From NCBI GenBank assembly GCA_036676395.1, contig JAKFCY010000002.1, positions 2,176,001-2,240,000 on the forward strand: DNA of 64,000 nucleotides, read 5' to 3'. This document shows positions 3,227 to 25,376 of this stretch, piece after piece (positions within the stretch are counted from its first letter, which is position 1; each line of letters opens with the position of its first letter). The stretch is from Bdellovibrio sp. GTDB lineage: Bacteria > Bdellovibrionota > Bdellovibrionia > Bdellovibrionales > Bdellovibrionaceae. The translations under genes and the position numbers were made by a program. The notes beneath the pieces are model-generated. The model worked only from the letters and a program-made list of their open reading frames with translations, ran no database searches and was not told the origin of the DNA.

Positions 3227-6200
3227 TTATTCGGATTTCTTTCTAGATTTCTTTGGCAGAACTAAATCATCAGGTTGCGATTCCCATTCTTGACGAATCT
3301 CGAAAGCTCTCAATAAAAGCTTTCGCTTAACATCATCATCTTCTGTGTGAACAGGAGCTGCATGAGGGCCCAATTTTTCTATTTCAAAAGCTTCAAGCTC
3401 TTTAAAAATGCGCTTCATAGCTTTGTCTCGCGATTTAAAATATTCACTTCCTCGCACCCTAATGAACTTCCATCCTAAGCGCTCGAGTACACTCTGTCGC
3501 TGGATATCATCCACAAGTTTTTCTGGAGGATGATATCGATCGCCATCGCACTCAATGGCGATCTTTTTACCGCCGATGCCCATAACTACTAGATCAATTC
3601 GGTATGCCCCGACTTGCCATTGCGGAACAACTCGATAGCCTTCATTCATCAAATCTTTAATAACAGATTGCTCGAAAATTCCCGAATTGGGATCTGCTTT
3701 TTTTTGTGTCGCTTCAATCGCTAATGACAGCTCACGAGGGTTTTCTGCATGCTTGATTAAACGTAATCTTAAATCACCAGGTTTTAAATCCGTCGCTGGA
3801 TTCAAAGAATGTACAACCCATAATTGATCCTGCGCTCTAGAAGCTGCGACATTAAAAGTTTTCTTAACATCTTCAGCTTGTTTTATGTTAAGTGGCGGAT
3901 CATCACAAGTATCTACCATCGAAAGAAGCATCACACTTCTTTCGTCACCTTGAAACTGCGAAGCATTGCCGCATAGAATTTTATGCTTTTGATAAATGCT
4001 AGCGCCAAGTTTGCGTTGAAGAATTCCATCAATGACCTGCGCCTGCTCAGTACCAACCATCGAAATCACACCAATAGACGAATCCTTATATTGATCGGAC
4101 TCTGCCATAGCTGCAATAATTGACGAAACCTCAGTTGCTTCAACTATATTTATTTTATTAACCGCTGTTGCAGAACTTACCTTATGACAAATCACATGAT
4201 CTGCAAAAGGACTACTTGAAGCTTCACGCAACGGTTTAATTTCACCTGAATATGACAGCTGATTACTAAATTGAATAATGTCCGGCACACATCTGAAATG
4301 TTCAACCAGTCGTATTGTTTCCCCAAACGACAGCTGGGCCAAATCATAGACTGAAGTTTTGCCGTCATAAAGCATCCTATTTGGTACACCTTGAAGTAAC
4401 TCGTTAATTAAAGATTGAATTTTTCCTAATTCCTGCCCTACGGCATAAGGCGTAACCTGCTGGTCATCTCCAACTACAATAACCTGCTTAGCTATCGCAA
4501 ATGCTACCAATGCCGTGATATCACTTTGGCTGGCCTCATCTAGAATTAATACGTCGAACTTCGTATGAACAAGATCAAAGCTATCGAAGACTCTCGACAA
4601 CGGCATGATCCAAACCGGAACGGCATTTTTACAATCTTTTAATGTTTTTTGGGCTTCACGTTTTATCTGCGAATCACGCTTTCCCGTACCTGACTTAGTT
4701 AATTTGCCTTGCAACTTTTCCCAACCATTTAAAGCTGATTGCTCTTTCAAGCCAGTGCGCTTTTTTTGGAATCGCCATGAAAGCTTTTCTACGTATTGAG
4801 CGTTTACATCATTTAATTCATACTTTAGGTTTAAAAGTTTTCGCTGCACAGTGCTGTAGTCTTTTGCCAATCGACGATCTAGCTCTTGTCGCCACTGACA
4901 TAAGTTCCATGCAAGTTCAGCATTACCGGGAATCAAGCTATCGGCATGAACACCTGAACGAGTTTGAACCATAGCAGCCCATGTAGGCGCATACCTTTCA
5001 AGTTTTTCTAAGTGTGCTGTGCGCAAATTATAAAAATGATTTTTACCTTTAAGATCTAAATAGCGGTTGTATGCAGCTTCGTATGCTTCAATATTCAATT
5101 CTGTTAACGCTTTTTGTAAACTCAAGATAAATGATCTCGCACACGCTGGTTTGTTTACGTTTATGCGCAAGATTTGCATTGTATCCTGACGTTTGGATTC
5201 TAAAACTTTTCGGTTTAGCCATAATTTACGAGAATTAATTGCTGGCACAAGTGTCATTTGTGCCATGGTCTCAAGTTGCTCAACATTTGGTTGCGCAGCT
5301 GCAGTAAGCGAGGTTTTTTCTATAACTATTGATAAATTAAATCCCTGAGATTTTAATCCGCTTTCAACATTATTCCAGATTGTTTTTGACCATGTTGAAC
5401 CGATTTTTAATGCTTCGACAAAAGACTTAGCGTGAATTTCTGGTTCTTTCTCTTCTAATGATGGACCTGACGCTGGCACAACCTGACGATGCCACCTGTT
5501 TGTAAGTTCGCGCCGTATTTGCAAAGTTTCGATTAATGCCGAAATTGCTTCAAAATGTTCAAGTTTTGCAGGACGCCCATCATCTACATAACACGTATTA
5601 ATTAATGTTTTCCAAGAAGATTTAAAAGTTAAATCCATAAAACCTATTGGTTTGCCTGATCTAAGATGAAAAATAATTTCATTATTAGCTTTGACGAGTT
5701 CAGGCGTTATCGGCGCACCAAGTTTGGGCCCATGGCTTAAGATGTATTCTTTTCTTTTCGCGATTTTCAGTGATGATGACTCAATCAGTTCAATGAGCTT
5801 AAGCCAAGGATCTAAATGTTCGATACCAAGTCTTGCATCAGCAACAACTTTTTTTATCCACTTGTTTGAACTAAGAACATCCCGACCTTTATTAATATCT
5901 TGAAGAACTTTTTCTAGAACATCTACAGACTGATTTTCATGAATCCATAGATTTGAATGGCTTTCTGCAGTTTCATTATCAACACCATCCAAGTGCTTCT
6001 TAAGATCAGAAACTTGGTGTGGAGTTAAAATCGCTTCAAGCTCAGGTAATACCTCGGACAAACATGATTCATCTTCCAAACTTATAAACCCATTAGTCTG
6101 ATATAGCTCATTTAATTCTTTGTCACTAAGTGGTAGAGGGGCTGACGGTTCAACAGGTTCAATAATCCATCCGTGTTCTAAGTTCAGTTCCGCAACTTTT

Positions 6201-7771
6201 CTTGCGGCCTCAGAAGGTCTTATCGCTTCGCCACCAACTACAATGTCTAGGTATTCATTAGCTCGAATATCTAAAATTTCTTTCTCTAAATTTTTAATAT
6301 CATCTTTAATCTGATTACGACGAAGACCGATCTGATTGATTTCTTTAGTTAATGAATCATGATCTGCGCGTGATAAATACGAAGTAATGCCCTTGACTGA
6401 CTCTTCAAGTTGAGCTTTGCTTTCTGCATCGTTTTCAAGAACTGATACGCATAGTGGGCGTAATCCTGGAACTACTTTCTCACGAACAACACGTAAAGCT
6501 TTAGATGTATGACTCGATACTAATACAGTTTTTCCACTTGCAAGCAGATGACCAATTACATTTGCGATCGTGTGTGACTTACCTGTACCTGGAGGACCTT
6601 GAACTAAAACTGAGCCATTTTTTTCTAAACGTGAAATTACTCTTTCTTGTTCGGCATTGGACGGCTTAGTTAATAAATAATCAATCTCATTGTTATCAAG
6701 TTCCGGTGAAGTCTCAACAGATGTTCCTTCACCATTACCATTGCCCACTAATGGTTTATCCTCAATACCCATCAATCGCATCAATGACTCAGGTACATGT
6801 TCTAAAGTTGGTAATTTTTCAATTAAGTTATCCAATGATTCAGCAAAACCTTGCGATCGATTACCTAAGAAAATTACTGGGTCTCGATATATATTAGCTT
6901 TATTCTTAACTACGTCTGATCTGCTTTCAGAAAAGTGTCCATCAGAAAAAAAACGTTGTATGAAAAATTTAAAAAACTCAGATGATTTGCCGTTTGCCAA
7001 TGGATGGGGGTTCGCTTCAAGAACTCGTTTTTTAACAGCTGAAATACCGCTGCCATCAAGTTCGTGATGTCGTAATAGTGAAGTATATAGCTCCACATCA
7101 TCGTCAGTTTCTCTGATTATGAATTCAGGCGTAACTGAGTCAAATTCAATCTCGACCTTTTTTAATAAAATCGGATGGTCAACAGGCTGAATAGCGCTGT
7201 CCCAGATCAAGTGACCGTCAGCTACAAATAGCTGAAATTTTTCAGATTCTCGTTGTATTTGACCTTGTAGTTTGAATAGATCGGCAAATACGAGAGCTGC
7301 ATCCCGTGCTGGGAGCTCAGCCTCTAACCAATTCTGTCTTTGTATCTGCCATCGCTCGAATGAAGCAACTCGTGATGGATCGTCTTCGAATTTATGGGTA
7401 GTAGCGTGACCAGTTTTCAAGTCTGTTAAATTTTTTGCGTGGATACATTTTGCTTGTCCGTCAATTTTTTCCCAACCATTTTCAAGCCATCCGTCCAAAC
7501 TTGATGGCGGCAAAGGGCACATTGTTTCAACTGGTCGCTTTACGCGAAATATAATTCCGTCAAATTCCTGTTCTGGATCATCCGGAGCATTAAATGTTTG
7601 AATCGTTGGGTATTTCGGGAGACCTGAAAAACGTAATGACCAGTCATAAGACTGCAGTGAGCAAACTGGCGGCGTGCGAAGTTTCGTTAATTCTCTTATG
7701 TAAGTGAAAACTCTTGTTAATCGTTCTTTTCCGGTGTTGTTATTCTGCTCGTCCAAGATGATGTTCCCCAC
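3227..7771 (-). CDS. SF1 (Upf1/DNA2-like, AAA_11/AAA_12) helicase fused to a C-terminal Vsr/MTES_1575-like REase domain; candidate defence protein
   Basis: QGPPGTGKS, LILDEASQ, VGDDQQ, EHFRC, FQGDER, NVAASRA; C-terminal FEQSV...YRIDLVV...IAIECDGDRYH...RQSVLERLGWKFIRV. Confidence 0.85.
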   Translation of the reverse strand: MGNIILDEQNNNTGKERLTRVFTYIRELTKLRTPPVCSLQSYDWSLRFSGLPKYPTIQTFNAPDDPEQEFDGIIFRVKRPVETMCPLPPSSLDGWLENGWEKIDGQAKCIHAKNLTDLKTGHATTHKFEDDPSRVASFERWQIQRQNWLEAELPARDAALVFADLFKLQGQIQRESEKFQLFVADGHLIWDSAIQPVDHPILLKKVEIEFDSVTPEFIIRETDDDVELYTSLLRHHELDGSGISAVKKRVLEANPHPLANGKSSEFFKFFIQRFFSDGHFSESRSDVVKNKANIYRDPVIFLGNRSQGFAESLDNLIEKLPTLEHVPESLMRLMGIEDKPLVGNGNGEGTSVETSPELDNNEIDYLLTKPSNAEQERVISRLEKNGSVLVQGPPGTGKSHTIANVIGHLLASGKTVLVSSHTSKALRVVREKVVPGLRPLCVSVLENDAESKAQLEESVKGITSYLSRADHDSLTKEINQIGLRRNQIKDDIKNLEKEILDIRANEYLDIVVGGEAIRPSEAARKVAELNLEHGWIIEPVEPSAPLPLSDKELNELYQTNGFISLEDESCLSEVLPELEAILTPHQVSDLKKHLDGVDNETAESHSNLWIHENQSVDVLEKVLQDINKGRDVLSSNKWIKKVVADARLGIEHLDPWLKLIELIESSSLKIAKRKEYILSHGPKLGAPITPELVKANNEIIFHLRSGKPIGFMDLTFKSSWKTLINTCYVDDGRPAKLEHFEAISALIETLQIRRELTNRWHRQVVPASGPSLEEKEPEIHAKSFVEALKIGSTWSKTIWNNVESGLKSQGFNLSIVIEKTSLTAAAQPNVEQLETMAQMTLVPAINSRKLWLNRKVLESKRQDTMQILRINVNKPACARSFILSLQKALTELNIEAYEAAYNRYLDLKGKNHFYNLRTAHLEKLERYAPTWAAMVQTRSGVHADSLIPGNAELAWNLCQWRQELDRRLAKDYSTVQRKLLNLKYELNDVNAQYVEKLSWRFQKKRTGLKEQSALNGWEKLQGKLTKSGTGKRDSQIKREAQKTLKDCKNAVPVWIMPLSRVFDSFDLVHTKFDVLILDEASQSDITALVAFAIAKQVIVVGDDQQVTPYAVGQELGKIQSLINELLQGVPNRMLYDGKTSVYDLAQLSFGETIRLVEHFRCVPDIIQFSNQLSYSGEIKPLREASSSPFADHVICHKVSSATAVNKINIVEATEVSSIIAAMAESDQYKDSSIGVISMVGTEQAQVIDGILQRKLGASIYQKHKILCGNASQFQGDERSVMLLSMVDTCDDPPLNIKQAEDVKKTFNVAASRAQDQLWVVHSLNPATDLKPGDLRLRLIKHAENPRELSLAIEATQKKADPNSGIFEQSVIKDLMNEGYRVVPQWQVGAYRIDLVVMGIGGKKIAIECDGDRYHPPEKLVDDIQRQSVLERLGWKFIRVRGSEYFKSRDKAMKRIFKELEAFEIEKLGPHAAPVHTEDDDVKRKLLLRAFEIRQEWESQPDDLVLPKKSRKKSE

Positions 7772-7876
7772 GATGAAATTCTTTATAATTTTATCGGGGT
7801 TTTAAAGGCTTAGCTTGATAATAAATAAAATTTTAGTTGTAAGCTTGTATCAATTCGAAACAATGTTTATTAGCAT

Positions 7877-8845
7877 TCATAATTTTTTTAATGGCGTTAC
7901 TACCAATTTCCGTACGTTAACAGGGCCATCAACGATATCACCTGTCTCATGCTTAAAAAATGTTATTTCTCCCGGGTGAAAGTCTGTTGGATATTTTTGA
8001 ACGACATTGGAGTCACCTATAGCGTGATTAACTTCATCAATAGTTTTCTTTAAACCTTCATGAAAAACATGCAACCTTAATTTAGTCTTTTCTGGTTGGT
8101 CGCAAGTATAGCAATCAATTGGCATTAAATTAGTGCCATTTAATTTTCCAAATACTGAGTAATGCACCAATTCGGTATCAACGAGATCATCTTTAATCCG
8201 TACTCCCATCGCCATTTCAATAGTTCGAGTTAGATCTCGACCAAAACTTTTTAATCTCTCCGTGGGTTTTTCATTCTGCCAACGCCAATGCACCCCTCTA
8301 AACATGCAAACATCCATGCCTTGCGATATCCAGCGAGCAGCGTCTATCCATAAACTGCAATGATAAATCGTTGCAGATGACTTTTTCATGGGAAATTTCT
8401 GAGAATACTCAATAGCTAAACAATGGATTAAGATATGTCTATTTTCTGTCTTGAGATATCTAGCAGTAGCTATGGTAAAGTATGGCATACCTTTATCATG
8501 TACGTGTTTATTTCGATGCTCTAGGGTTTCTTTTAATTGATTTTCAGACAAACTCGGTAATTTATCAAAATATTTATACGCATATTCGTACAGTTTTGCA
8601 GCTAAGGCTATAGCATCATCAAACGTTTTTAGGGGCTTGATTGGCAATAGTCCACTAGGCGATGGCGGCATTCCGACTTTTATTCCCATGTATTCAATGA
8701 ATGCAAATGGTGAAACGAAAAGCTTCATTTCCTGAGGAGGAATTCCAAGATATTTCTTTGCTAGCTGGTTATTAGCTTTATCAAAAAAAGATTCATCTTC
8801 TATAAATTTTCTGAAAAAATTTGTATCAAAGAACAAACTCGGCAT
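7877..8845 (-). CDS. Hypothetical protein with PIN-like N-terminus
   Basis: N-terminal LFFDTNFF; later DDLVDTE and CYTCD acidic motifs. Confidence 0.45.
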   Translation of the reverse strand: MPSLFFDTNFFRKFIEDESFFDKANNQLAKKYLGIPPQEMKLFVSPFAFIEYMGIKVGMPPSPSGLLPIKPLKTFDDAIALAAKLYEYAYKYFDKLPSLSENQLKETLEHRNKHVHDKGMPYFTIATARYLKTENRHILIHCLAIEYSQKFPMKKSSATIYHCSLWIDAARWISQGMDVCMFRGVHWRWQNEKPTERLKSFGRDLTRTIEMAMGVRIKDDLVDTELVHYSVFGKLNGTNLMPIDCYTCDQPEKTKLRLHVFHEGLKKTIDEVNHAIGDSNVVQKYPTDFHPGEITFFKHETGDIVDGPVNVRKLVVTPLKKL

Positions 8846-8938
8846 AAGCTCCTAAGCTGATTCGCTTTTCATTTTTTTTAACTCCATTAAAACCAACGTT
8901 AAGTACTGTTGGCTTTTCGCGAATTCTACTTCCGCAAC

Positions 8939-9145
8939 CTATCTATAACAAAGTTTGATTTTTAAACTTTGAACTTCAGACTTTGTTTTTGCGCCACATT
9001 GAGGCTCTAAACCCCCGGTTCTGCAAAATGCAGAACGTCGACCGCATTGTGAGCCTCTTTTGTCTACATTCCAAGGGCAATTGCACAGGCCAGCAAAGCT
9101 ATTGTCCGTCATAAAAACGACAAAAAGAAATATAAAGTATTTCAT
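8939..9145 (-). CDS. Small secreted Cys-rich protein
   Basis: Signal peptide plus CNCPWNVDKRGSQCGRRSAFCRTGGLEPQC. Confidence 0.6.
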   Translation of the reverse strand: MKYFIFLFVVFMTDNSFAGLCNCPWNVDKRGSQCGRRSAFCRTGGLEPQCGAKTKSEVQSLKIKLCYR

Positions 9146-9148
9146 TGA

Positions 9149-10105
9149 TTAAGCGACATCTGTTTTATTTTTTTCGGCTGTAGCTTCAACAACTGGGCAA
9201 GGTGTTTCAATTGCTTGAGCATTCAATGGTGCAGGTGCCATTGAAATTACCGAAATAGCCTCAACAGTTGCTGGTACATCTTTCTTAGCATTGCTGCGCT
9301 TGGTTTTACGGGTCGCACGTTTTTGCGATCTAATGTACTTATGGAATTCTAAAGCCTTAGTTTCGTTCCAATCTTTGATTGAATCATCTAATCCGTTTTC
9401 TAATAAATTGTACACTTTATCCATTAGCATTTCGTGATTCGCTTTAAACTCGTGTTCACCACGAATTGATTTAGCAATATACTTGATTACATCAACTGAT
9501 AAGATTGCTTTAGATAAAGATTCTGGAGAAAAAGCCATAGCTTCTTTAGCTAATTCAGGCCATTCGCTCGCAGCAAATGTCGATTCATGCAAATCTAAAA
9601 ATTCGTGGCATTGCTCTTCTACCACTTTTTTAGTGCAATCAATTACATCGCTATCAGACTTAATATCAAATGCTGCGAATTCAACCCCGCCGTACTGTGG
9701 TTGTGAAAAATCAAATAGTAACCATTCTGTACCATTTGTTAACATTCCATATTTTACGCCACCTAGACTATGAAGGTATTCACTTAATTGAATTTTTCCA
9801 GATCTAAAGTCAGATTTTCCTAAATCAAAACCCATCTTTTTAACTTCAACTACGAATACTGGCTTATCGTTTTTAGATACGATTAAATCGGGCCGCATTT
9901 TACCTTTAGTTTCTTGCGAACGAATTACATATCCAGAAGCCGCAGTATAACCTAAGCAATTTTTAAGAAAGCTCTGTGCCCAAACTTCAACATTAGACTC
10001 TTTACTCGCGGGGTTTACATCGATATTCTTTAATTCAATCATATGCTCGATAGCTTGATCTAACATATTTCTAACTAATCTGTCTTGTTTGCTCTCTTTT
10101 GCCAT
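9149..10105 (-). CDS. Stand-alone type I restriction HsdR N-terminal-like PD-(D/E)xK nuclease
   Basis: RPDLIV...VVEVKK...QLSEY...GMLTNGTEW; AGGAG RBS. Confidence 0.75.
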   Translation of the reverse strand: MAKESKQDRLVRNMLDQAIEHMIELKNIDVNPASKESNVEVWAQSFLKNCLGYTAASGYVIRSQETKGKMRPDLIVSKNDKPVFVVEVKKMGFDLGKSDFRSGKIQLSEYLHSLGGVKYGMLTNGTEWLLFDFSQPQYGGVEFAAFDIKSDSDVIDCTKKVVEEQCHEFLDLHESTFAASEWPELAKEAMAFSPESLSKAILSVDVIKYIAKSIRGEHEFKANHEMLMDKVYNLLENGLDDSIKDWNETKALEFHKYIRSQKRATRKTKRSNAKKDVPATVEAISVISMAPAPLNAQAIETPCPVVEATAEKNKTDVA

Positions 10106-18412: not shown

Positions 18413-18706
18413 GTGTTTCGGATATATAAGGCTGAAGTAAGGTTTAACAAGAAATACTGGAGTTATATTTGGATAGATTCTCATTACGAAAAAAAACATA
18501 GCCACTCTATCAATGATGATCTAATCCTGACCTTACTTAGCTGCTTAACAGGCGATAGTGCCGTTGAAGCCAATACTGAATCAGGTGGCTTTGCATATTA
18601 TGAAGTCGATACAGAGTACAAAGGCAAACTTTACCGACTTATTTTAGTCATTCCACCAGACAACAGCTATCTTGGCGTCAGAAATACTTATAGGAGGTCA
18701 AAATGA
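18413..18706 (+). CDS. Putative type II toxin (BrnT/RelE-like size and pattern)
   Basis: 97 aa; YKGKLYRLILV...GVRNTYR; ATGA overlap with the HTH gene. Confidence 0.5.
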   Translation: MFRIYKAEVRFNKKYWSYIWIDSHYEKKHSHSINDDLILTLLSCLTGDSAVEANTESGGFAYYEVDTEYKGKLYRLILVIPPDNSYLGVRNTYRRSK

Positions 18707-19056
18707 AGAAAATAAAAAAACCAAAGTTAATTCGAGTTAGCAAAACACCTCCACCAGGCTGGCCTACCGAAACCCATTGGAAAGAAATTGAAAAAAAGCT
18801 TGGCAAAGGATTAGCTACAAAGATGCTTTCTCCTGACGCTGGCCCCGTAGAGCGCACTAAGCACGAGCTTTGCGAACTGTTTATCCTTTACCGTCGTGAA
18901 ACAGACATCACCCAACGTGAGCTGGCAACACGCTTAAATGTGACTGAAAACAGAGTCAGCGAAATTCTACACTACCATTTTGATACCTTTACACTGGATA
19001 GGCTTATCGAATTGCTAAGTCGAATAAAGCCAAATCTAAAAATAAAAGTAGCGTGA
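18703..19056 (+). CDS. XRE-family HTH antitoxin-like protein
   Basis: ITQRELATRLNVTENRVSEILH...FTLDRLI. Confidence 0.8.
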   Translation: MKKIKKPKLIRVSKTPPPGWPTETHWKEIEKKLGKGLATKMLSPDAGPVERTKHELCELFILYRRETDITQRELATRLNVTENRVSEILHYHFDTFTLDRLIELLSRIKPNLKIKVA

Positions 19057-19317: not shown

Positions 19318-19608
19318 ATGAGCGAAGAAGTAGTAGTAAAACCCTTGAACAAGGTTCAACAAAACATTGCGGCCAACAAAAATCCTCTTGAAGGTATTAC
19401 TCTTGAGACTATGGTTACCGAATTAGTCGAATGCTACGGCTGGGAACGTTTATCTGATAAAATCTCGATCAATAGCTTCTCAGAAAACCCAAGTGTTAAA
19501 TCAAGCTTAAAATTCTTAAGAAAAACCGACTGGGCACGAACGAAAGTCGAACAGCTTTACACTTGGCGCGCGAAGACCGGTTGGGACCCGCGCGATAACG
19601 CTAAGTAA
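19318..19608 (+). CDS. DUF2132/VF530-family protein (second copy)
   Basis: [12 protein letters not shown]...YGW...[25 protein letters not shown]. Confidence 0.9.
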
Positions 19609-19707
19609 GAATTAGCTGTACAAAAAACTGACAGCGACCATAAACGCCGAACCATGAAATAAGGTTTGGTCTTGCCTCGCTATCTCGAATTAATCGCCTT
19701 ACAAGCC

Positions 19708-19723
19708 TGGAACGAAACTAGCT
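19708..19723 (+). promoter_or_regulatory. sigma54-like -24/-12 promoter
   Basis: TGGAACGAAACTAGCT (GG-N10-GC) upstream of the M23 gene. Confidence 0.5.
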
Positions 19724-19756
19724 CTTAGAGTTTGTAGATAACAAACGGGAGCTAAC

Positions 19757-20743
19757 ATGTATAAAAAAATTATCATCAATCTAGCAATGGCAATGGTTAC
19801 GCCACTAGCGTTCGCTAACACTTCATATGACGGTGTGTCGCTGGCTGCCGCTGCAGATTCAAGTTTTTATATAGAGACTCCGGTGGCCGCAAAGCTAACT
19901 TTATTTAATCAAGATGTGACCGGCAATATGTCAGTCAGCAAACAAATCACAGTTCCAGAGAATTCAATCTTAGCGGTGAATTTATCAACGTTTGCAACGC
20001 GCGTGAATAGCGACTGGGTGTGCGGAATTCGTGTAGTCGACGTTCAAGATGAAGATCTTCGTGAATCAGATGTCGCTGACGAAACTGATTTTTGTATTCG
20101 TACTGCAGATGTTAAAAAAGCTGGATTATTAGATAGTTCAAATGGTTTAAATAAAGAAGCCTTTCTTAAATATCAAAAAACGGGTCAGCTTTCTGAATTA
20201 CATGATCTTGGTGCTTTTGCTGCACATATGGCGTCTTCAGAAAACAATTACCAAGTCTTTAAATCAGCTGCGACTAAAAGTAGTAATATGATTAGCCCGC
20301 TTAAAAACTGTAGTGTTGGCTGTTTAGCAGTAACAAGTGAATACGGCATGCGTAAACATCCGGTTCACAAAACTAAACGTTTGCATAAAGGCATAGATTT
20401 ACGCGCAAGAACCGGAACCCAAGTCGTGAGTGTTTATGATGGCAAAGTTTTAGCGACTCGTACTGAGCGTAATGCAAGAACTAAAAAAATGAAGGGCTAC
20501 GGTCATTACGTGATCGTGATCCACCCAACACGTCAGATTGAAACTTTATATGCGCATTTATCTGCATTTAAAACTTCAGCCGGTAAACCAGTAACTCAAG
20601 GTCAAACGATTGCTTTATCTGGTAACACGGGTGTAGGCACTGCCCCGCATTTACATTTTGAAATTCATGTGAAGAAAAATCGCAGCTACGTTCCTGTGAA
20701 TCCAAGATCGTATGTTACTAAAATGTTAAACGTGAATCTTTAA
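19757..20743 (+). CDS. Secreted M23 peptidase
   Basis: Signal peptide; HKGID, YAHLS, GPH-like APHLHFEI. Confidence 0.9.
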   Translation: MYKKIIINLAMAMVTPLAFANTSYDGVSLAAAADSSFYIETPVAAKLTLFNQDVTGNMSVSKQITVPENSILAVNLSTFATRVNSDWVCGIRVVDVQDEDLRESDVADETDFCIRTADVKKAGLLDSSNGLNKEAFLKYQKTGQLSELHDLGAFAAHMASSENNYQVFKSAATKSSNMISPLKNCSVGCLAVTSEYGMRKHPVHKTKRLHKGIDLRARTGTQVVSVYDGKVLATRTERNARTKKMKGYGHYVIVIHPTRQIETLYAHLSAFKTSAGKPVTQGQTIALSGNTGVGTAPHLHFEIHVKKNRSYVPVNPRSYVTKMLNVNL

Positions 20744-21533
20744 TTGAACGGGCTGACACTTCTCTTTGTAGCGAAGCCCATGCATTGATGCACTGATATC
20801 CCCAACAAGTGACTAAAGACTCACGAAAGAATAAGTAATTTTTTGGGGTGCACGAATAACCAGTTTCGAACTCTTGAAATTCGTTAATGCATAAAAAATA
20901 ATTCAGTTCATCTTGCGCACGTTTATAGTTAGTCCATTCTTTATGATCTGCATCGCTTGTTAAAAGTAACATGGCTATTTGATCTTCGAAAATAAATGCG
21001 GCACTTTCAGAACCTAATTCATCAGTAGGATGATCTAACTCGTACAACGCATGCCCAAGCTCATGAGCAAAACAAATAAGATTGCCATATGTTGGCTTAT
21101 TATTGCCCCGAATAACGTACCCAGTACTTCGTGGAAGCGTATAAAATTCGGGACTAGACAAATCCAGCATGGCATTTTCAATCAGAATATTTATTTCAAT
21201 TAGGCGTGGATGGTCTTTTAACAATTCTTTTAAACTAGATTTAAGGTCATTTGTTAGATGTTGTGAAAAAAATAAAGGCGGCTTAAGTGTTGGGGGAAGC
21301 AAACCTAAATTAGCAGAATCCATTAAATTTACTAACTGCGATTTTAACTCTGTTAGCATAGGAAACACCCAGCCTTTTTTAATAAGACTTAACCTTAGAA
21401 TTTCACGGCTTACGAGAACCTCTTTTTCGATGGGTGTTAGTTCGTTTTTTAACCAACGTCTTGGTTCAAATTGCATCTTTTGATACATTTCTTGAATTGA
21501 AACTGAAGTCGCGTAAATCACACAAAACTCCAT
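20718..21533 (-). CDS. HExxH metallopeptidase-like protein (M3/oligoendopeptidase-like core)
   Basis: FAHELGHALYE...SESAAFIFE; overlaps the oxygenase gene. Confidence 0.55.
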   Translation of the reverse strand: MEFCVIYATSVSIQEMYQKMQFEPRRWLKNELTPIEKEVLVSREILRLSLIKKGWVFPMLTELKSQLVNLMDSANLGLLPPTLKPPLFFSQHLTNDLKSSLKELLKDHPRLIEINILIENAMLDLSSPEFYTLPRSTGYVIRGNNKPTYGNLICFAHELGHALYELDHPTDELGSESAAFIFEDQIAMLLLTSDADHKEWTNYKRAQDELNYFLCINEFQEFETGYSCTPKNYLFFRESLVTCWGYQCINAWASLQREVSARSIKDSRLTF

Positions 21534-22060
21534 TCAGATATTAGAGTCAGACGTTCAACTTCTTTAACAACGGGCGAGACGCTGTGAAAAGATTTTTCAG
21601 AAAAAGGCAATACCACAAGTGTATTTGGTTTGGGCTGAATCGTGTTTTCTAAAATAAAGTGTTTGTTATTTTTACTCCAAATTTGAAGGTTTCCACCCAT
21701 TCCAGATCTCCATTCGGTCAAATGTAAAAACACACCTGCATTAAAACCGCAATCTGCGTCAGTATGGATAGGCACACCATTTGTTATTCCTTGGGTACAT
21801 CGCAACTGCGGAACAGAACCTTGATGCCTTTGCACTCTGTTTTTCAATAAATCCTGTAAAACTTGGCGCATATCTTTACCGATCATTTTACGCAGGACTT
21901 CGGTATTACTAACTAATCCATAACGATCGTGATGTTTGGGGTTAGTTTCCCACTGAACAGAGCTTAGGGCTGCTTTTTTAATAAAATGGTAACTCTCTTC
22001 GGAAAAAAAGTTCTCGATAATAAAATAAGGATACGGATTACTGTAGGCTAAGACTTTCAT
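21518..22060 (-). CDS. 2OG-Fe(II) oxygenase
   Basis: HTD...W..GMGGNLQIW...PKPNTLVV...SFHSVSPV...RLT facial-triad pattern. Confidence 0.85.
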   Translation of the reverse strand: MKVLAYSNPYPYFIIENFFSEESYHFIKKAALSSVQWETNPKHHDRYGLVSNTEVLRKMIGKDMRQVLQDLLKNRVQRHQGSVPQLRCTQGITNGVPIHTDADCGFNAGVFLHLTEWRSGMGGNLQIWSKNNKHFILENTIQPKPNTLVVLPFSEKSFHSVSPVVKEVERLTLISEWSFV

Positions 22061-22844
22061 GATCCCCACCCGCTGCTTTCATAATTTTTAGTACTTCTAA
22101 ATTACCGGCATGATTCTTTATCGCCGGAACATAAAGTGTTGTCGAAAAGTTGATTTGAGACTTCAATTGATCGACTTGATCTACGGTATAATAATTTACA
22201 CTCGATTTATCACTTGCTGAGTTAGCGGCTCTAACTAAAGCTATCGGATGATCAGCAGAATAAAACTTTAGCAAATATACTTTAAGCAGATCTAACCGAT
22301 TACCATCGCCTGCGCCTTGATAATCGGCTACTGGATTTGCAACTGAACACACATGATAAAAGAAATGGTCACTCTGTATATTGATCTTATGCTCGAACAG
22401 CAGCGCTCGGTTAATATCAATTAAGCTTGATCCGTTTTCTAGAATATCTAATTCTAATACATTTGCCATAACATCAAAACTAGAAATGCCTTCGAATACC
22501 TGAACTAGCGTTTGCTTTTGACGGCCCCACGTTTCTAAAGCTTTTGTCAAAAACACGCCTAAACGCGGATGACCAGCAACGATGAAACTTACCTGTTCAA
22601 ACTGAGCAACAGTTTTAATGATTGTCTTCATCATGTCTTTATAATTTTCAAGATCGGTGCGGTCAGTTTTGTAATAGGGGTTTAAATTCACCATTACCTG
22701 ATTGCCAGGAACATACTGTTTAATGATCGCTTCCGATGTTTCAATAAAGCAAATAGCTTTACTAGCCTGAATTTGAGCCAGAGCTTCTAAGGTAATTTGT
22801 GTAAATCTTTTAGTACCGATGCCTAGGATATTTAACTTTTTCAT
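22038..22844 (-). CDS. Borosin/OphMA-like SAM-dependent methyltransferase (tetrapyrrole methylase fold)
   Basis: LGIG..QITLEALAQI, NLNPYY..(10)..Y..M, AGHP, GISSFD, LDILENG; start ATG 22844 with GAAGG upstream. Confidence 0.75.
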   Translation of the reverse strand: MKKLNILGIGTKRFTQITLEALAQIQASKAICFIETSEAIIKQYVPGNQVMVNLNPYYKTDRTDLENYKDMMKTIIKTVAQFEQVSFIVAGHPRLGVFLTKALETWGRQKQTLVQVFEGISSFDVMANVLELDILENGSSLIDINRALLFEHKINIQSDHFFYHVCSVANPVADYQGAGDGNRLDLLKVYLLKFYSADHPIALVRAANSASDKSSVNYYTVDQVDQLKSQINFSTTLYVPAIKNHAGNLEVLKIMKAAGGDHESLSLQ

Positions 22845-23083
22845 GATTTGCCTTCTGGTTATAACGAACCGTTTGTCTTCAAGGCTTATTTCAAAGGTGA
22901 TACCAATCCGCATCTATATATAAGTAGGCTATATTTCAGTTCACCTATTTGAATTCCGGGTTTTAAGAAAGTATTCCGAAAATCCGGATAAATTTCGAGC
23001 CAGATCGATTTTATCAAGGCTAGAAATCCGGACAAAGAGGCATAGTACTTGGAATAGTGTTTATCAACTAACAAGGAGTACAC

Positions 23084-23242
23084 ATGAACCATAACCAAAA
23101 CACAGAAACTGAAATCACTGTAAACCAAGCCGCATTAGAGCTTAGAATTGAAACTGAAGGCCCTAGCGTTGTTCGACGTTTACTTAATGTGATTCCAGTC
23201 GACATCGAAGCACTTCTTAAAGAATTAGACGAAGAAGTGTAG
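23084..23242 (+). CDS. 52-aa candidate RiPP precursor peptide (not in the ORF track)
   Basis: AAGGAG RBS at 23073; MNHNQNTETEITVNQAALELRIETEGPSVVRRLLNVIPVDIEALLKELDEEV*. Confidence 0.75.
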   Translation: MNHNQNTETEITVNQAALELRIETEGPSVVRRLLNVIPVDIEALLKELDEEV

Positions 23243-23245
23243 TTT

Positions 23246-23277
23246 TAAAATGGGGATCTGAAAAGATCCCCATTTTA
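23246..23277 (+). terminator. Perfect 14-bp stem with GAAA loop after the peptide gene
   Basis: taaaatggggatct-gaaa-agatccccatttta. Confidence 0.8.
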
Positions 23278-23313
23278 TTGATTTTGGATTCAACGAATAA
23301 TACGGAGAAAAAA

Positions 23314-24606
23314 ATGAAATTTTTTATTAACTCAAAACAGTTTTTACACCTAAGCCTAATTACTTTAATTCAGCAGATGATGGTTGCAGGATCGACTTAC
23401 TTTTTAATTAAACTTACCTCTTCGCAAAACAATCCCGAGAATTTTTTAATTCAGCTATTTGGTTTCTTAGCATGCTTAACGCTGGTCTACTTACCGGTCT
23501 CTCTACAAAAATATTTTCAAGATAAATGGGTTCTTTCAGTTCAGAAAAAATATTTATCTTTATTTAGAAAAAATTACTATGGCCGCATTGATTTACTTGG
23601 AAACGCAAATACTGAAAACGAAAAATTTGGCTTTATGCAAAGAGAAGCTTTTCATGTTATTGATCAAGTCACGTTTTATTGGAGCGATTTACTAACGACT
23701 TCATTAAATGTTGTTCTGAATATTTTAGTTATTGGTGCAGTGCTGGATAAGTCTTTTTTTAGTGCTTACTTTGCCAGTTTTGTAGTTTATGGAATTCTTG
23801 CGACAGTATTTGCTAAATTTATTGAAAAATGGAGCATTGAAAATCAAACGGCTCGTGTTACTCATTCAAGCCTGTTGAATAAAATTTGGCCAACGCTATT
23901 AATTGGCAACCGTATCAATAACGACCAATTATTTAGCTCAGAAGAATCTAAATTTGCTGATTTGAATTCTTCATTGTTAAACAATCGCCGTAAAACTGAA
24001 GCTGTTCAACTTATAACAACCTTACTAACCATGGCTCCAGTCATTGGCTTACTCGTTTATACTATGATTCAAAATTTGCAAAATGCAATGATCTTAGTAC
24101 CCTTGATAGCCACTTTACATCGTCAGGTTCAAATCATTCAACACATCGAAGTTATTGGAACACTTGGCTTACATTATCATTCGATGACGGCTCTGTTAAA
24201 TGGGTTTTTAGCAAGCCTTGAAGCTCCTGAAAAACAACAGCTTAGTCAGCGCATGCAACCCGCACTAATTCGTGTTCAAGAAAATAACGGTCGCACGTTA
24301 GTGACAGGCCCAAATGGTGCCGGAAAATCCACGTGGTTAAAGATCAAAAAAGAAGAACTAGGCGACAAAGCGATTTATATTCCGGCAAAAATGGATATTT
24401 TCTTTAAAGATATTTCTGACGAAATGTCGAGTGGCCAACGTGCTATGGCTATTCTAAAAAATATTGAAACTTCAGATTGCAAAGACCAAGTTTTTTTATT
24501 GGATGAGTGGGATGCCAATTTAGATGCTAACAATCGTGAAGCTTTAGAATTAGTTGTGCAAAAGCTCGCTGAAAACAACAGTGTCTTCGAAGTTCGCCAT
24601 GCCTGA
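23314..24606 (+). CDS. ABC exporter (TM domain plus compact ATPase)
   Basis: Multiple TM segments; GPNGAGKS, MSSGQ, LLDEWD; GGAG RBS before ATG 23314. Confidence 0.8.
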   Translation: MKFFINSKQFLHLSLITLIQQMMVAGSTYFLIKLTSSQNNPENFLIQLFGFLACLTLVYLPVSLQKYFQDKWVLSVQKKYLSLFRKNYYGRIDLLGNANTENEKFGFMQREAFHVIDQVTFYWSDLLTTSLNVVLNILVIGAVLDKSFFSAYFASFVVYGILATVFAKFIEKWSIENQTARVTHSSLLNKIWPTLLIGNRINNDQLFSSEESKFADLNSSLLNNRRKTEAVQLITTLLTMAPVIGLLVYTMIQNLQNAMILVPLIATLHRQVQIIQHIEVIGTLGLHYHSMTALLNGFLASLEAPEKQQLSQRMQPALIRVQENNGRTLVTGPNGAGKSTWLKIKKEELGDKAIYIPAKMDIFFKDISDEMSSGQRAMAILKNIETSDCKDQVFLLDEWDANLDANNREALELVVQKLAENNSVFEVRHA

Positions 24607-25267
24607 AGTATCTATAGAATTTCTACTCGCATTGGGTATAAATGGGTATCAACAAATTACTCCAAAAGCTGAATGCAAACTACGCTTGCAGCAATCAATG
24701 GATCTGATTTATGAGCTGCCGACTGAACTAGTCTGTCTGCAATCACTTTTCACAGATGAACTTAAAGAAGTTATTTGGCTGCAAGCGATAAGTAAAGACA
24801 CTCCGACATTTGCTTCAGCGGCCTATCCAGAAGTACCTGGTAAAGTTTTTGTGACAACAGCATTATTTTATTATGTTCCGCCAACAACAGCTACGCTAAT
24901 TACTAATACATATTTTGCTTTTGAAAATATGATTCATGAATGCCTTCACCATCGTGGTGAAAAAATATTTACCGCATCGCCGCTACTAAGAGACTTAATG
25001 AAAAGCAGTGCTGAAATTAGTGTGTCTTGGCGGGCAACAACTTGGAGTTTTTCTCACGCCATTCAAGCTTACTATGTGTATCTTTGGATATTTAAACTTC
25101 GCCAATGGCGCTCGAACGATGTAAGCGAAAAAATTGAAATTCGCAAAATTCTGTCACAGTCATTGAATGATGTAAGTGTTATTATTAATGAACTTGAAAT
25201 CCAACTAAGCCAGATTTCGAAGGTCTCCCCTATTGAATTTCGTGCTTTACTAGAGAATCAATTTTAG
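24599..25267 (+). CDS. aKG-HExxH-type (HEXXH motif) peptide-modifying protein
   Basis: FASAA..PGKVFV...ENMIHECLHH...VSWR...HAIQAYYVY; ATGCCTGA overlap with the ABC gene. Confidence 0.7.
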   Translation: MPEVSIEFLLALGINGYQQITPKAECKLRLQQSMDLIYELPTELVCLQSLFTDELKEVIWLQAISKDTPTFASAAYPEVPGKVFVTTALFYYVPPTTATLITNTYFAFENMIHECLHHRGEKIFTASPLLRDLMKSSAEISVSWRATTWSFSHAIQAYYVYLWIFKLRQWRSNDVSEKIEIRKILSQSLNDVSVIINELEIQLSQISKVSPIEFRALLENQF

Positions 25268-25376
25268 TTAAACAACTAAAACCTAAATCAAATCACACAC
25301 TTGATTCACCAATTACCTCCTACCGCTGTTTTGTGCTATAATATCTAGTACAGCAGACTTACAGATAGGAGGACTT

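Follow-up and report, generated by a model that had tools for sequence, protein, structure and literature searches.

A putative modular family of borosin-like RiPP clusters with an Asp-type methyltransferase, found through a Bdellovibrio locus

A candidate RiPP pathway in Bdellovibrio sp.

The 64,000-nt stretch of Bdellovibrio sp. DNA analysed here (assembly GCA_036676395.1, contig JAKFCY010000002.1, positions 2,176,001-2,240,000; hereafter the window, whose numbering is used throughout) contains a six-gene cluster at positions 20718..25267. We read it, with a probability of roughly 0.6 and from sequence comparisons, as a pathway for a peptide synthesized by ribosomes and modified post-translationally (RiPP) with backbone N-methylation in the segment R32-L-L-N-V-I-P38 of a 52-aa precursor. 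In this pathway, a methyltransferase (MT) dependent on S-adenosylmethionine (SAM) and resembling the borosin N-methyltransferases (NMTs), with Asp at the site of their catalytic Arg (Asp-type), would methylate one or more backbone nitrogens of that segment. Two iron oxygenases, a 2-oxoglutarate (2OG) enzyme and an HExxH protein, would hydroxylate the peptide, a small M3-type peptidase would release it, and an ATP-binding cassette (ABC) protein would export it. Our guess is that the product is an exported antagonistic or signalling peptide.

The precursor peptide

The window peptide comprises a variable N-terminal half, the motif and an acidic C-terminal helix. It is conserved in loci L004-L006 and L112 and is under purifying selection: in pairwise comparisons among four genomes, its last 23 codons showed 0 non-synonymous and 10-13 synonymous differences. 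Across the family, the motif reads R-(C/L/Q)-(L/M/I/Q)-x-x-(V/I/L/A)-P, usually followed by x-D/N-I-E-E-L, with R32 and P38 invariant in 26 aligned precursors; these had no family match in NCBIfam (best E 0.14). In distant loci the motif lies on a short gene with a ribosome-binding site, upstream of the MT gene.

A first-pass annotation of this DNA had taken the 52-aa peptide for the precursor of a RiPP-type cluster, a reading that calls for homologues beside a small open reading frame (ORF) in other genomes. Such co-occurrence was looked for and found, and the assignment stands: a motif peptide is situated at most 6 kb from the MT in 59/71 loci, a partly redundant set with several duplicates, and near the MT in 4/4 further loci checked. 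In a reciprocal scan of a genome collection, an Asp-type MT was encoded directly downstream of 13/25 motif matches and no MT was found in the locus of the other 12, with about ten chance matches expected by a rough estimate. The 12 loci missed by the pattern comprise L061 and L062, where inspection revealed a motif peptide; the broken locus L058, with a motif fragment; four with less than 100 nt upstream of the MT match; four in which the match covers no more of the MT than its 3′ part; and a fusion of a major facilitator superfamily (MFS) transporter with the MT.

By sequence comparison, the link of the window peptide to the motif family is real but distant, with intermediate peptides in L026, L059, L063 and L112 as bridges. 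A substitution-matrix profile built without the window's clade ranked the peptide first of 2,547,424 sequence windows of its own genome (29.3 vs 25.9 for the next), and in a substitution-matrix profile search of 426,019 windows it scored 29 vs 23 for the next match; a hidden Markov model of 19 Cys-type motifs (with Cys after the motif Arg) did not find it at E ≤ 1.

Multi-core precursors with 2-4 repeats occur in L096, L069-L072, L075, L082, L087, L088, L090 and L091, and repeats are known in type V borosins from the accessible part of Imani et al. Because the shortest repeats, of ~15 aa, keep only R-x-L-x-x-V-P and lack the acidic helix, the functional element can be placed in that segment. 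The modified core is thus probably the R...P segment and not the N-terminus, with the helix as an optional follower. The 52-aa peptide is very probably the substrate of the pathway.

Two variants of the precursor deserve mention. In L090:921-5231, L091:5054-9320, L088 and L062, Gln-type multi-repeat precursors (R-x-V-R-Q-L-x-x-V-P) occur with an enzyme resembling protein arginine methyltransferases (PRMTs) and a protein of the PF05118 Asp/Asn beta-hydroxylase family. In a related strain (sequencing run X6), the N-terminus of the precursor is affected by a 6-nt deletion that keeps the frame (window 23087).

An Asp-type branch of borosin-like methyltransferases

The MT passes PF00590, and its best PDB matches are borosins (E 3e-16 to OphMA over residues 10-263). 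These are the fungal OphMA, dbOphMA and MroMA (PDB 5N0S, 6MJF, 7TWK), which, unlike the window MT, are fused to clasp and core. A profile of the MT family matched borosins with E values of 1e-29 to 1e-37 over ~255 positions and other tetrapyrrole methylases with 3e-8 or weaker over ~130 positions, such that the MT is closer to borosin NMTs along its full length. A tetrapyrrole methylase or YabN identity was rejected, since NCBIfam gave 65 bits vs a cut-off of 525 and the profile favours borosins.

Active-site residues were compared in 172 domains. The 174 proteins from which these came, a sample biased toward the query, were 25 homologues together with the best 150 among 2,585 representative hits. 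The Tyr pair of the active site is kept in the MT (Y58 and Y68, in 167 and 166 of the domains), whereas D64 occupies the site of the catalytic Arg (R67 in SonM, R72 in OphMA), with Asp in 128/172 domains and Arg in 33/172, and A90 that of the Tyr at the SAM site (Y93 in SonM), turning YGHP into AGHP. Asp at the Arg site goes with linked changes at eight other positions. Y58, D64, Y68 and A90 align with OphMA Y66, R72, Y76 and Y98, as counted along the alignment, and the fungal fused borosins keep Arg72 and Tyr98. The SonM equivalents by spacing are Y58, R67, Y71 and Y93, and SonM entries scored in the expected order with the family profile, at 109.6 (R67A), 109.3 (wild type), 108.0 (Y93F) and 105.4 bits (Y58F).

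The Asp-type enzymes constitute a separate branch. A quick tree, calculated for 103 rows, has a branch of length 0.63 (Shimodaira-Hasegawa-like approximate likelihood ratio test, SH-aLRT, 99) that divides 49/49 sampled Asp rows and three others from 42/42 Arg rows; in a careful tree, limited to 31 rows, 17/18 Asp rows grouped with support 98/92, the exception being the degenerate second domain of an Arg-type protein. Both trees were built without a non-borosin root. Seven Arg-type proteins (P0044, P0095, P0100, P0125, P0127, P0130 and P0160) have two MT domains, the second without active-site residues.

Like SonM of the type IV split borosin SonM/SonA from Shewanella oneidensis (PDB 7LTC; PMC8429565, PMC10549244), the MT is a stand-alone NMT of ~265 aa and of the same fold family, with a separate short precursor and both active-site Tyr residues. 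It differs from SonM in having Asp at the R67 site and Ala at the Y93 site, and its cluster differs in the Arg...Pro motif precursor, in the presence of oxygenases, peptidase and exporter, and in that the five-helix borosin binding domain (BBD) was not seen; in the portions of these papers available, the SonA BBD spans residues 1-53, vs 52 aa for the whole window precursor and as few as 35 aa for other precursors of the family. The split-borosin assignment of the first-pass annotation therefore held for the borosin fold and failed for a canonical split borosin, and we describe the MT as working like one instead of filing it as a member because the catalytic Arg is missing. Membership in the BBD-less split borosins of Legionellales ('class 4', PMC11395268; Lee et al. 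10.1101/2024.01.09.574750), which, in the parts of these sources seen, share a separate NMT and precursor, the lack of a BBD and an adjacent transporter, was also rejected. Two NMTs from Legionella plasmids (with MFS genes and short precursors), taken as examples of that class without comparison with its published list, are Arg-type with YGHP kept and have precursors unrelated to ours; in the trees they fall beyond the Asp branch, on the opposite side.

From these comparisons, backbone alpha-N-methylation appears the likelier reaction. More tentatively, and doubtful as it stands, Asp64 could bind Arg32 of the peptide, which would replace the missing catalytic Arg of the enzyme. The same RiPP pathway might instead involve methylation of a side chain. 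The most plausible target would then be the guanidino group of the Arg that is invariant in the peptide, and Asp64 would act as its counter-ion. Acidic residues serve as counter-ions to Arg in PRMTs. Here, Arg is invariant in the substrate and Asp in the enzyme facing it. SonM uses an Arg to organise backbone methylation, as described in the consulted part of PMC8429565, and that Arg is gone. Yet both Tyr residues that grip the substrate backbone in SonM (same source and part) are kept, and borosin MTs methylate the backbone in the papers describing them, to the extent of the parts at hand. Additionally, Arg side-chain methylation has another candidate enzyme, because nine loci carry a separate PRMT-like methyltransferase (L026:3198-4043, L031:8804-9685, L083, L086, L090, L091, L118, L119 and L028), whose best PDB matches are eukaryotic PRMTs (E 3e-6 for L026); by sequence, these are candidates for Arg side-chain methylation of a RiPP. 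We thus consider methylation of a side chain by the MT unlikely.

Partner enzymes and the residue after the motif Arg

Partner genes were tallied in the 52 loci that have the motif plus one or more partners. These were merged into 21 groups by 60% MT identity, with labels entered by hand and some loci ending early. The HExxH gene was present in 7/7 groups with Leu after the motif Arg and in 0/13 groups with Cys at that position, and a radical SAM gene in 6/13 Cys and 0/7 Leu groups. Loci of the Cys plus radical-SAM type form a single clade, whose sister is the clade of the window (97/93). In PMC13060819, reasoning from co-occurrence in this way led to a HExxH target. Here, at slightly less than even odds, the HExxH enzyme would target Leu33 or an adjacent position. 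The window joins the ABC protein of the radical-SAM clade to the set of 2OG enzyme, peptidase and HExxH protein, which is mostly seen with MFS transporters.

The radical SAM proteins of the family are short (~200 aa) and gave no recognition-domain match, as might be expected if the MT were a catalytically dead peptide-binding scaffold that, in place of a recognition element, presents the precursor to swappable enzymes (radical SAM, 2OG, HExxH). The replacement of two residues important in SonM would also agree with such a scaffold, as would the behaviour of the SonM R67A mutant, which is inactive and still binds substrate (PMC8429565, in part). However, GxG, GHP, SSFD and both Tyr positions are 80-99% conserved over the set of domains, which fits continued SAM chemistry, and the Arg site is fixed as Asp and not free to vary, making a dead scaffold improbable.

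Oxygenases, peptidase and transporter

The 2OG-Fe(II) oxygenase had been recognized as such by the first-pass annotation, and the identification is sound: it matches PF13661 and PF13640 above cut-off and has the HxD...H...R residues. Its match to the RiPP oxygenase family YhhC was weak (33 bits vs a cut-off of 150).

The rightward HExxH protein has H113, E114, H117, R145 and Y161 invariant in 13 rows, and its HExxH is followed by WR...(H/Q)A-Y, the canonical form of the downstream motif of the α-ketoglutarate (aKG)-HExxH oxygenases. Four of seven close homologues match TIGR04267 (best E 1.7e-6) and wider homologues reach 32.2 bits; no significant similarity emerged when its profile was compared with that of a true member of TIGR04267, or when those of the cluster's two HExxH proteins were compared with each other. 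It resembles ChlH, PflC/PosC and PesO (TIGR04267; PMC12636437, PMC13060819) in its HExxH followed by WR...HA-x-Q/H-A-Y and as a stand-alone protein in a peptide cluster, and differs in falling below the family cut-off and in having no PDB sequence match. Because TIGR04267 is still the only family match, we say that the protein works like an aKG-HExxH oxygenase. The gene is accessory: it occurs in HCB337, one of three close relatives, and was not found in the other two (G008 and G027, 90% and 99% complete). The aKG-HExxH label given earlier is therefore kept for the motif and the sole family match, and weakened by the score and the accessory distribution. In the strain of run X6, 666 other letters stand at the end of this gene (window 25253-25286).

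The leftward HExxH protein, predicted to be mostly helical (AlphaFold2, predicted local distance difference test 90), had oligoendopeptidase F (2h1j) as its best structural match (Z 15.4, rmsd 3.6, 257 aligned). The aKG-HExxH fold (8s5f) reached Z 5.2, and a second aKG-HExxH oxygenase was rejected on this difference. Foldseek agreed, with an E value of 2.7e-3 and none at or below 1e-3. H157, E158, H161 and E176 are invariant in 12 rows, and the model combines the HExxH, the third Glu ligand and the M3 fold. In the ESM Atlas, the nearest named cluster was M3 (0.92, on 15% of members). None of the 12 rows belongs to Pfam PF01432, the 271 aa fall short of the full two-domain length, and a profile comparison with OpdA was not significant. 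The protein is thus alike in predicted fold and HExxH+E ligands to the gluzincins oligoendopeptidase F/M3B, M32 and ACE (PDB 2H1J, 3AHM), which differ from it in size (~500-600 aa) with ~10% identity, and is predicted from the model to have a half-size oligoendopeptidase-F fold. The peptidase-like character proposed for it earlier thus agrees with the fold and finds no Pfam peptidase match. The model makes this small M3-type protein the likely releasing peptidase; L083, without it, has a full-length M3 oligopeptidase instead.

The ABC protein has a membrane part at its N-terminus and an ATPase domain that is very short, with Walker A at 332, SSGQ at 372, Walker B at 395 and H at 429. All ATPase motifs thus lie within ~100 residues, with just 40 aa from Walker A to the signature. 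It matched ABC families only below cut-off (PF00005, 18.8 bits vs 25), with no curated family, and no peptidase domain was found in it. Its earlier description as an ABC exporter fits the membrane part and the ATPase motifs, less so the very short domain and the lack of a curated match. Homologues with 24-29% identity lie beside most Cys-type MTs. The short-ATPase family also occurs beside other peptide-modifying genes (L032:10669-12758, L083:230-1609), including a true TIGR04267 member (54.9 bits), and may mark RiPP clusters generally.

Distribution and modular composition of the family

The MT is present in 3/61 relatives, 11/182 genomes of the family and 11/401 sampled genomes of the phylum (own genome included), the distribution of the cassette thus being patchy. 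Three Bdellovibrio sp. genomes contain peptide, MT, 2OG enzyme, peptidase and ABC protein in the same layout with different flanks. G151, from a different genus, has all six genes plus a second 2OG gene in one operon, in a locus of 61% GC and with 26-32% identity; its precursor motif is GPSIIRRLLNTVP. The MT family is large, its top 150 hits falling into more than 100 clusters when grouped at 50% identity, and the MT is the sole enzyme that every locus shares. In other members, radical-SAM, PRMT-like or MFS genes are exchanged in, and an ABC or MFS transporter is present in most loci with enough flank. The proposal of a candidate new RiPP cluster is accordingly maintained as regards a RiPP-type cluster, which turns out to be one variant of a much larger modular family.

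That the genes do not form a natural-product pathway, the peptide being a small regulatory protein modified in place or the genes a chance assembly, appears very improbable. [quoted passage not shown] Against this stand the transporters, the multi-core precursors, the linked peptidase and the swapped tailoring enzymes, together with the recurrence of the full six-gene set in G151.

Several variants were observed. The commonest (L014:7832-10742, L017:7834-10738, L007, L011 and others) has a PRC(L/M) precursor of 35-105 aa, the MT, the short-domain ABC protein and a radical SAM protein of ~200 aa; its hosts are Bdellovibrionota and Chlamydiota, and in L009 it sits between rplL-region genes and rpoB. 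On the conjugative plasmid NZ_CP033895 of Serratia liquefaciens FG3 (L096:4714-8665), a three-repeat precursor, Asp-type MT, HExxH, 2OG and MFS genes adjoin a Tn3 element, and near-identical cassettes occur in six metagenome loci (L069-L072, L080, L081). A large actinobacterial version (L031:2939-11853 from Amycolatopsis vastitatis H5, and L028) comprises precursor, 2OG enzyme, small peptidase, MT, PRMT-like enzyme and LLM oxidoreductase, plus P450-like and reductase-like ORFs (read by eye) and an MFS-like ORF. L066:1478-3577 (P0098) encodes a natural fusion of MFS transporter and Asp-type MT, with no motif peptide seen upstream. In the broken member L058:7900-8609, the precursor match ends after HPKLLNIV and the MT lacks a start; peptidase, HExxH and 2OG genes remain.

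A metagenome scan with a single MT as query found nothing, and literature searches retrieved no paper on a borosin together with HEXXH or on RiPP N-methyltransferase clusters in Bdellovibrio. Neither the Asp-type lineage nor the R...P motif is mentioned in the available parts of Lee et al. (10.1101/2024.01.09.574750), Imani et al., PMC8429565, PMC12636437, PMC13060819, PMC11395268, PMC10125368, PMC10549244 and PMC11285071. These clusters apparently constitute an undescribed family of borosin-like RiPP clusters, whose members may already sit as orphan NMTs in published accession tables. As a wider and still doubtful proposal, they would form a new RiPP family on an Asp-type sister lineage of the borosin MTs, in which the invariant Arg of the precursor completes the active site in trans; this charge swap would take over substrate choice from the BBD and determine where methylation occurs. 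A single short R-x-L-x-x-V-P scaffold would be decorated by interchangeable enzymes, namely radical SAM on Cys cores, aKG-HExxH on Leu cores, 2OG enzymes and bacterial PRMT-like enzymes, across Bdellovibrionota, Chlamydiota, Actinomycetota and Enterobacterales.

Points against backbone N-methylation by the six-gene pathway

Several observations weigh against the pathway as we propose it. SonM R67A is inactive and R67K loses ~100-fold activity, according to the part of PMC8429565 consulted, and canonical borosin chemistry cannot be assumed for a family without this essential Arg. The Tyr at the SAM site is also mostly lost in Asp-type rows (P, A or other), a residue that matters less in SonM, where Y93F has only a 1.6-fold effect (same source, in part). 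No BBD was seen, as judged by length, the MT having 268 aa with no extra domain, the window precursor 52 aa and family members as few as 35 aa. The pairing of Asp and Arg rests on co-conservation only. Among precursors, no motif was seen in L066 or in other loci where the MT is partial or the DNA upstream is short (12/71 by pattern), and the fragment in the broken locus L058 has Lys at the Arg site. As to the partners, the correlation between Cys and radical SAM counts once, because those loci are a single clade, and the Leu type needs 3-4 changes, only two of them forced. The HExxH protein matches its only family, TIGR04267, with 18.6 bits vs a cut-off of 40, found no match in a PDB search that included a 13-row profile, and has no gene in L004 and L005, which share the peptide core. 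Finally, the ATPase domain of the ABC protein is abnormally short.

Organization of the cluster and neighbouring genes

The two divergent, overlapping gene sets and the hairpin described by the first-pass annotation were confirmed (Table 1). The six ORFs are intact, with starts refined from relatives and start context, and overlap by 23, 16 and 8 nt; the GC content of the cluster is 36.8% vs 39.6% for the genome. The cluster is not an assembly artefact, since a contig of run X6, from a separate study and with 141 differing letters, spans positions 19500-25253 as one piece. Contigs of run X10 cease to resemble the window at 20744 and 25361; a related strain whose flanks enclose other DNA would fit this, although it is not proven.

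Table 1. Features of the cluster, with window positions.
Feature	Position	Strand	Evidence
Half-size M3-type gluzincin peptidase-like protein (predicted), HELGH...SE, 271 aa, start uncertain	20718..21533	-	AlphaFold2 model, structural match
2OG-Fe(II) oxygenase, 180 aa, HxD...H...R	21518..22060	-	PF13661 and PF13640 above cut-off
Asp-type borosin-like SAM methyltransferase, stand-alone, 268 aa	22038..22844	-	PF00590, OphMA match, trees
Divergent intergenic region, 239 nt, with the ribosome-binding site of the peptide	22845..23083	.	Sequence
Putative precursor peptide, 52 aa, AAGGAG upstream	23084..23242	+	Conservation, profile match, synonymous-only change
14-bp stem-loop after the precursor gene	23246..23277	+	Shuffle test, relatives
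ABC-exporter-like protein, 430 aa	23314..24606	+	Motifs, hydropathy, sub-cut-off ABC matches
Accessory aKG-HExxH-like protein, 222 aa, HECLH...WR...HAIQAY	24599..25267	+	TIGR04267 sub-cut-off match

A promoter scan gave fewer sites than expected by chance (9 vs 22.7), and the intergenic region had no promoter signal above chance. The hairpin has a z score of -3.49, with 1/200 shuffles equally good, and three relatives have hairpins of differing sequence at the same place after the peptide gene; we infer that it acts as a partial terminator or mRNA stabiliser giving an excess of precursor.

A flanking M23 gene and a 71-aa gene were rejected as cluster members because they are absent from L004-L006. 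Elsewhere in the window, positions 3227-10105 and 18413-19056 together hold possible defence genes, for an HSDR_N protein and for a 1514-aa helicase that carries a REase_MTES_1575 domain. They also hold a pair of genes, including one for an HTH_37 protein, that resembles a toxin-antitoxin module. Positions 19318-19608 encode a VF530 DNA-binding protein with a paralogue (46% identity) ~17 kb upstream on the same contig.

Significance

The step in which borosin enzymes deprotonate the amide nitrogen is called elusive in the accessible part of PMC8429565, where R67 was shown to be essential. With Asp fixed at the R67 site and a conserved Arg in the substrate, the Asp-type enzymes are a natural lineage for a direct double-swap test, and some hosts are in culture: Bdellovibrio sp. 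HCB337 and HCB-110, B. bacteriovorus Bd16, Serratia liquefaciens FG3, whose plasmid cassette is a convenient model, and Amycolatopsis vastitatis H5. In this family, a borosin-like enzyme is combined with partners of the aKG-HExxH, short radical-SAM and PRMT-like kinds. For site-specific N-methylation, a recognition motif of 7 residues that dispenses with a 53-residue BBD would offer a compact handle. Lee et al. (10.1101/2024.01.09.574750), in the part available, mention 733 orphan NMTs, and the motif peptides are a candidate precursor class for some of these.

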